64,000 bases of DNA from Escherichia phage BF17, in the sequence record MW822008.1; one strand, given 5' to 3'. Positions 63,525 through 64,000 of the stretch are shown piece after piece. Positions within the stretch are counted from its first letter, which is position 1. Every line of letters starts with the position of its first letter. The notes beneath the pieces are model-generated. The model was not told the DNA's origin. It saw only the letters and a program-made list of their open reading frames with translations, and ran no database searches. Made by a program: the position numbers and the translations under genes.

Positions 63525-64000
63525 ATGGGCAATTTAATAACTTTCAATAAATTAACTAATTATGATAGTTCAACTATCTTTGAAAGAATGTTAGAAAATT
63601 CTGATAATTCGTATGTGGCAGTAGTTCCACCAAGAGTTGGCTCTTCTGAATCAATTTGTGCCTATGTACTGTACAAGATTTTAAATTCAAGTGAACGTCC
63701 AAGTATTGTTTTATCGACACCAGTTTCGTTTAAAACCAATAGACAATCAATGAATTATTATTTTGAAAGTATGATTTCAAATATTAATAACCATTTAGGT
63801 TCAAATTTGTCAATCATGCATGGCACATCCAGTAGTACTATTAAATGTAAAGGTACTTTTATTGGTGAAATATTATATAGAGCGTTGTCAGGTGATAACT
63901 TGCGAGGTTTTGGTAGAAGTGAAATTGTAATTGATATGTCAACATATATGAGGGATGAGCATTTCATATCTATGACTGATATAATGAGATATACTCATAA
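63525..64000 (+). CDS. Partial ORF running off the window end: putative P-loop NTPase, possibly a terminase-large-subunit-like ATPase; start uncertain
   Basis: Open frame from ATG 63525 to the end of the window; PPRVGSSE (degenerate Walker A-like) and [22 protein letters not shown] (Walker B-like) loosely resemble the T4 gp17 ATPase domain; no clear RBS. Confidence 0.3.

Follow-up and report, generated by a model that had tools for sequence, protein, structure and literature searches.

An open reading frame at the edge of an Escherichia phage BF17 sequence probably encodes a catalytically inert paralogue of the large-terminase ATPase rather than the large terminase itself

The 3′ end of the stretch of Escherichia phage BF17 DNA analysed here (sequence record MW822008.1; 64,000 nt in total, referred to below as the window) raises the question of whether the open reading frame (ORF) that runs off this edge encodes the large terminase (TerL) of the phage, as a sequence-only reading had proposed, or a different protein. 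Translation of 63525-63998 (+ strand) gave 158 residues without a stop codon, ending in ...IMRYTH, and confirmed that a partial ORF with the motif PPRVGSSE and a Walker B-like segment is present; the frame is open to the window end, and the remaining 211 nt of the gene (here called the TerL-like gene) are located beyond it. The features relevant to this locus are as follows.

44155-45891: portal gene.
47155-47775: protease gene.
49048-50223: major head protein gene.
62996-63481, + strand: conserved 161-aa gene (PHROG 15898), given as context.
63482-63485, + strand: GGAG between the hairpin and the stop codon of the upstream gene, which it directly follows.
63489-63524, + strand: terminator-like hairpin (11-pair stem, 63489-63514) and T-tract (63515-63524) that abuts the start codon.
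63525-64000, + strand: 5′ part of the TerL-like ORF (476 nt, i.e., 158 codons and 2 nt of a 687-nt gene).
63627-63650, + strand: remnant of a Walker A motif or P-loop, PPRVGSSE (residues 35-42), placed on the TerL Walker A motif by hhalign.
63900-63950, + strand: remnant of a Walker B motif (residues 126-142), with the strand and Asp137 kept (IVIDM).

A distance of ~13.3 kb separates the TerL-like ORF from the capsid gene upstream of it, and this interval contains genes for DNA polymerase, a sliding clamp, and RNase H, in agreement with the earlier description of a gene separated from the portal and capsid genes by ~13 kb of replication genes. The 161-aa gene preceding it is always found between an RNase H-like exonuclease gene and either the TerL-like gene or TerL. 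Elsewhere in the window, a 368-aa HNH/endonuclease-type ORF (50352-51458, + strand; PHROG 681/559), probably a free-standing homing endonuclease, is located directly 3′ of the major head gene, and a single 3,333-aa ORF (14714-24715, − strand) presumably encodes the giant protein of the virion or tail fibre that is typical of Rak2-like phages.

BF17 belongs to the Asteriusvirus (121Q/PBECO4, Rak2-like) group of jumbo coliphages, with a genome of ~350-385 kb. Positions 63400-64000 (601 nt) differ from fEgEco12 at 3 positions, and the window locus presented 1-4 differences per 1,676 nt relative to Turkey3 and five independent SRA or metagenome assemblies. In these near-identical phages (fEgEco12, Turkey3, and metagenome or SRA contigs) and in BF17, the full-length TerL-like protein has 228 aa, and one 228-aa database sequence is 100% identical to the query across the part contained in the window. 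The ORF is the homologue of 121Q gene 3, fEgEco12 g367, and RaK2 ORF110; homologues were found in at least 46 phage records, and the only match in sequence libraries was PHROG 27915 (E = 2e-61; residues 1-157, profile of 227 positions). Seven real relatives of 198-233 aa, with identities down to 25%, were obtained by an exhaustive HMMER search that covered 1.84 billion representatives; the weakest match of this search was a low-complexity repeat protein and was dropped. Because of the PHROG 27915 match, the homologues in these records, and a dN/dS of 0.30, the TerL-like ORF is a real gene rather than a chance reading frame. In phage WPEC3, the homologous ORF is unannotated and was matched by tblastn in two pieces spread over 651 nt instead of 474 (locus positions 3001-3651), and the WPEC3 record therefore contains an insertion or frame disruption within the TerL-like gene. 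GenBank names for the gene vary and include hypothetical protein, "DNA packaging protein; Gp17" (fEgEco12), "large terminase subunit", and "helicase".

The proposal that this gene encodes the large terminase, i.e., a gp17-like motor whose N-terminus is short and whose P-loop deviates from the norm, draws on a TerL-ATPase-like fold, on the register of the motifs, and on the fEgEco12 label. The full-length protein found in the near-identical genomes refutes this identity: it ends after the ATPase/lid region at 228 aa (the window itself stops at residue 158), has no nuclease domain, and contains neither the Walker A lysine nor the catalytic glutamate. A complete TerL is encoded directly downstream, in a separate gene that starts ~660 nt downstream of the TerL-like start codon, inside the 3′ end of the TerL-like gene and beyond the window. 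In 121Q, a single intact ORF encodes the 545 aa of TerL, including RQMGKTT and LYLDEF motifs and a nuclease region at the C-terminus, and the 445-aa C-terminal TerL ORF of fEgEco12 matched Pfam Terminase_6N at 25.3 bits (cut-off 22). We therefore regard the large-terminase identity of the window ORF as practically untenable. The stop codon of the TerL-like gene overlaps the TerL start by 14-29 nt in all Asteriusvirus, Alcyoneusvirus, and Mimasvirus genomes examined; the TerL-like gene is located 5′ of TerL and overlaps it in fEgEco12, WPEC3, Ecwhy_1, Turkey3, 121Q, and CRJP21, and the same overlap was found in RaK2, GAP32, A4, Turkey5, JNE01, and five metagenome or SRA-assembly contigs. Salmonella phage Munch has no TerL-like gene; in this phage, 134 nt and an annotated terminator separate the 161-aa-type gene from TerL (locus 2340-2474), indicating that the TerL-like gene is dispensable in at least one lineage.

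The resemblance to the ATPase core of T4 gp17 noted from the sequence alone was borne out at the level of predicted structure, and the N-terminus is indeed shorter than that of TerL. An AF2 model built from a nine-sequence family alignment reached a pLDDT of 76.7 and a pTM of 0.80 (a two-sequence run gave a pLDDT of 40). Foldseek searches of this model against the PDB gave 48 matches at E ≤ 1e-3, most of which were TerL or phi28 packaging ATPases (D6E 5oe8, E = 2e-6; T4 gp17 2o0h/3cpe, 1e-5; also P74-26, Sf6 gp2, phi28 gp11, and HK97), with TerL ATPase domains as the top matches; the remaining PDB matches were to the helicase-like domain of NAT10/Kre33. Terminases also dominated the matches in BFVD, including short "terminases" of CBB (235 aa) and Atu_ph07 (244 aa). 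By predicted structure and Foldseek, the protein has a TerL-type ASCE ATPase fold. The sequence-only reading had itself given the lack of a terminase nuclease domain as grounds for rejecting its proposal, and this domain is absent from the full-length protein. Neither the fragment nor the full-length 228-aa protein reached the gathering score of Pfam Terminase_6N; searches of Pfam, NCBIfam, and PDB sequences were without a meaningful match, whether run with the fragment, the full-length protein, or the profiles of the family, and BLASTP of the TerL-like protein against repaired TerL gave none. A direct hhalign comparison of the family with TerL was weak (P = 0.043); it placed PPRVGSSES on ARQMGKTTV and the Walker B segment on RGLSVNLLYLDEF. 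Because the direct comparison was weak, gp268 of Cronobacter phage GAP32 (GAP32_268; 235 aa), the positional homologue in this phage, was used as a bridge: it aligned to the TerL profile with a 98% hhalign probability (E = 2e-13; TerL 32-284) and to the window family with 72% (E = 3.5e-5; 191 columns), and its tblastn matches included cyanophage TerL genes at ~1e-11. The case for homology to TerL is consequently built on the predicted structure, synteny, and the bridge through GAP32, as direct sequence comparisons were weak or empty. Relative to TerL, the TerL-like protein covers the part from approximately residue 57 up to where the ATPase/lid region ends.

The residues needed for catalysis have been lost throughout the family. 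The Walker A consensus of the family is PPRxGTTES or PRQTGTTTS, as compared to ARQMGKTT in TerL, and the lysine is absent from all nine aligned members as well as from RaK2, A4, and GAP32; at this point, the window has GSS, most members have GTT, phage A4 has GST (PRQTGSTD), and GAP32 has GLT (RGSGLTT). Several members retain the terminase-typical R-Q-x-G that precedes the lost lysine (e.g., RaK2, PRQTGTTT), which points to TerL ancestry. At residue 138, directly after the Walker B aspartate, the window protein has Met and the family has M, G, A, S, or D, while TerL has Glu (LLYLDEF); the hhhhDE arrangement of TerL occurs in no family member. The family alignment contains 16 invariant columns, including P35, G39, and S43, and its best-conserved part is the C-terminal segment PFFLF.HIDILEYQ..MLN.LG..KFE.YCLMKGKYD. 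By motif order, this segment may be read as corresponding to the TerL ATPase lid region, W..HP...W....IG..F.REY.CEF, and the GAP32_268-TerL alignment agrees. One might take the conserved P-loop glycine and the hydroxyl residues following it (GTT/GSS), the three invariant residues P35, G39, and S43, and the acidic residue retained at the Walker B position as signs of an active NTPase with a non-canonical P-loop; with no loop lysine in any member and no catalytic glutamate, we consider this very unlikely.

The TerL-like gene itself is already known, as a "truncated large terminase" of Rak2-like jumbo phages (CBB_274 and GAP32_268) was described by Buttimer et al. 2017 (PMC5259590). What is new here is the family-wide loss of the catalytic residues, the structural support for the diverged Asteriusvirus version, the contrast in evolutionary rate with TerL (see below), and the absence of the gene from Munch. 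The window protein resembles CBB_274 and GAP32_268 in size (228 vs. 235 aa), in its location directly 5′ of and overlapping TerL, and in comprising the ATPase region only, and GAP32_268 likewise lacks the catalytic residues (GLTT, DD). However, the Asteriusvirus version is far more diverged, has no terminase match at the Pfam/CDD level, and lacks the N-terminal DDIFYFIETY...YQ segment that GAP32_268 retains. Compared to the ATPase domain of T4 gp17 (2o0h, 3cpe; Terminase_6N), the window protein shares the fold, the order of the motifs, the Walker A position, and the Walker B strand, with a C-motif-like INS in place of TST and a lid-like LG..F..Y.C in place of IG..F..EY.CEF; unlike T4 gp17, it has no Walker A lysine, catalytic glutamate, nuclease domain, or N-terminal subdomain, and it falls below the Pfam threshold. 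A short ATPase-only copy of TerL directly 5′ of TerL is also found in Sinorhizobium phage phiN3 (gp94; 194 aa, between the small terminase gene TerS and TerL), but this copy keeps intact ATGKTT and LLYIDE motifs and is located beside a classical small terminase. As the tblastn match of GAP32_268 in phiN3 falls within the full TerL (gp93) rather than within gp94, the two duplications may be independent.

The TerL-like gene is under purifying but relaxed selection, with a constraint approximately ten-fold below that of its neighbours, as indicated by a dN/dS (fEgEco12 vs. 121Q) of 0.295 (dN 0.169), compared to 0.031 for TerL, 0.036 for RNase H, and 0.074 for the 161-aa neighbour. Its dN is ~5 times that of TerL. 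In phages with TerL proteins that are 88-93% identical, the types of the TerL-like gene (fEgEco12/121Q, JNE01/Turkey5, and A4) are only 27-30% identical; for example, JNE01 and 121Q share 93% identity in TerL and ~30% in the TerL-like gene. The raised dN, the loss of all catalytic residues, and the absence of the gene from Munch would fit a functionless remnant of a TerL duplication that is decaying. A dN/dS of 0.30, below 1, argues against decay, as do an ORF that has stayed intact (222-235 aa) even in lineages with identities as low as 25%, the 16 invariant columns together with the strongly conserved C-terminal motif, and the retained overlap with the TerL start, and we consider such a remnant unlikely.

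The sharp type-wise diversification beside a nearly invariant TerL, the relaxed constraint, and the presence/absence polymorphism seen with Munch may alternatively reflect a conflict with the host, in which a TerL look-alike would engage or blunt immune sensors such as Avs1-3 and would not act as a packaging factor; the large-terminase fold is reported to be what Avs proteins recognise (PMC13581612). A protein with the TerL fold would be expected to trigger Avs sensors, not to block them, and a partner protein would account at least equally well for the tight overlap and coupling with TerL. These points leave the host-conflict explanation decidedly unlikely. A broader formulation, in which the protein is a rapidly diversifying mimic of the TerL ATPase and either belongs to the packaging motor, as a subunit for specificity or regulation, or protects against Avs1-3, also has a low probability in our assessment.

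The sequence-only reading had called the start codon of the TerL-like gene uncertain since it lies within the U-tract of the upstream terminator and has no adjacent ribosome binding site, and this description is correct: the hairpin (63489-63514) is followed by TTTATTTGTT and then directly by the ATG at 63525, and the GGAG is located 5′ of the hairpin. No in-frame ATG, GTG, or TTG is present between the upstream stop codon and this ATG. The start codon at 63525 is nevertheless supported by conservation, as the same aligned Met starts all nine family members, and the homologous ATG is the start codon of 121Q gene 3. The hairpin has a folding z-score of −4.6 relative to shuffled sequences, and two positions differ in the 121Q stem, with pairing intact. 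In place of the GGAG of the window, 121Q has TAAGGAGA and RaK2 has AGGAG; the GGAG/hairpin/U-tract/AUG layout is kept in Asteriusvirus and RaK2 (121Q locus 1505-1585; RaK2 locus 1730-1800), whereas GAP32 has a normal ribosome binding site after its hairpin. In the minimum-energy fold predicted for this region, the AUG is additionally paired with the stop region of the upstream gene. The conserved layout and this predicted pairing suggest that the hairpin bridges a ribosome binding site or that the gene is coupled to the upstream ORF, and the GGAG may be a candidate Shine-Dalgarno sequence that would be brought near the AUG by formation of the hairpin, by analogy with T4 gene 38. A σ70-like match inside the TerL-like ORF (63580-63608) was within chance expectation and was rejected.

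We conclude that the window ORF probably represents the first 158 residues of a TerL ATPase paralogue that has 228 aa, is catalytically inert, and is putatively a terminase accessory subunit. Such a protein would be unable to hydrolyse ATP and would not be the packaging motor; it would be made together with TerL, probably by translational coupling, and would most likely act as a non-catalytic accessory or regulatory terminase subunit that contacts TerL or DNA through surfaces of the ATPase-domain type, with the conserved C-terminal lid-like segment as the likeliest contact site. Small terminases set packaging specificity. The fast type-wise divergence of the TerL-like protein appears to resemble that of small terminases, and, like a small terminase of the T4 gp16 type, the gene is located directly 5′ of TerL and diverges fast relative to it; this is an analogy of position only. 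Unlike a small terminase, the protein has a predicted P-loop ATPase-like fold instead of a helix-turn-helix and an oligomerisation core, and no TerS match was found in Pfam or PHROG. We do not claim that it replaces a small terminase, and it need not be a substitute for one, as phiN3 has both a classical small terminase and a truncated TerL copy. Group 2 jumbo phages have been reported to possess a classical small terminase (Iyer et al. 2021; PMC7824862); no small terminase annotated for Rak2-like jumbo phages was found in the searchable literature. The best 60 of 1,407 records in a tblastn search with the phiN3 small terminase were T4-type phages of ~100-250 kb and included no Rak2-like genome of 340-385 kb, which is a weak negative.

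A separate observation concerns TerL itself, beyond the window end. In the clade that includes BF17, the annotation splits TerL into one ORF of 113-114 aa and another of 445 aa, and the break between them consists of one extra C within the Walker A codons (CGT CAG ATG C GGA AAA ACA ACC), while the 121Q counterpart is unbroken (CGT CAG ATG GGT AAA ACT ACT). By offset from the ORF start, the break would be located at approximately window coordinate 64447 (region ~64438-64460). At least 11 phage records and five independent raw-read assemblies share the break, which was also found in the diverged lineages A4 and Turkey5. Each genome with the break has one TerL place, except for the noisy, unverified CMSTMSU assembly, which is listed with two; a second, compensating TerL copy was thus ruled out outside CMSTMSU. 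This recurrence in records and assemblies, the single TerL place, and the presence in diverged lineages indicate that the break is real. Among the three lineages with the break, dS is ~1 or more (saturated) and dN/dS is 0.03-0.05 on both sides of the break; no stop is found in 455 codons of the +1 frame, and the three lineages share an identical sequence in the 21 nt surrounding the break. The 0-frame codon at the break is CGG, and this is the only CGG seen in the analysis, as the codon occurs in none of 16,411 codons in 28 window genes; AGG and CCC occur five times each in the same set. The break looks like a programmed +1 frameshift at a hungry codon, with CAGAUGCGGAAAAACAAC as the putative frameshift site. 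A +1 shift at CGG would give the junction ...NIMLTARQMGKTTVAAAF..., while a slip on the A-run would give ...RQMRKTT.... Quadruplet decoding by a special tRNA was rejected because the six tRNAs of fEgEco12 have normal 7-nt anticodon loops, and the tRNA-Met/Asn pair was rejected as a frameshift factor because it is also found in phages with an intact TerL. A search for a stimulatory RNA structure downstream of the break in three sequences gave no convincing covariation, and no mention of the TerL frame break was found in the searchable literature.

Many Rak2-like TerL genes (e.g., those of JNE01 and RaK2) contain an intein with a LAGLIDADG/Hom_end endonuclease, resulting in proteins of 870-890 aa, and the intein insertion point is located directly after the GK of Walker A, the same spot as the 1-nt insertion. 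Turkey5, which has the frameshift, and JNE01, which has the intein, carry TerL-like genes that are 99% identical. Because the two events share the same spot and these two phages share this gene, it is possible to speculate that the 1-nt insertion may alter the target of the homing endonuclease. As a candidate for programmed frameshifting in a gene that is essential to the phage, the conserved +1 break at an unused CGG codon in the P-loop of TerL may be of more general interest.

For annotation, the TerL-like gene should not be named TerL, "helicase", or "Gp17"; its product is probably a TerL-ATPase-like pseudoenzyme, and the real terminase gene adjoins it. If the improbable reading as a rapidly diversifying TerL mimic is true, no pseudo-ATPase partner of a viral packaging motor would have been described before the TerL-like protein, and, in the clade with the frame break, its gene would open a terminase operon in which the catalytic subunit can be made only by +1 recoding within the Walker A codons. 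A conserved, fast-evolving, inactive copy of a motor domain that is probably coupled translationally to the motor gene would represent a packaging component of Rak2-like jumbo phages, and its role could reveal how genomes of 350 kb are recognised and packaged.
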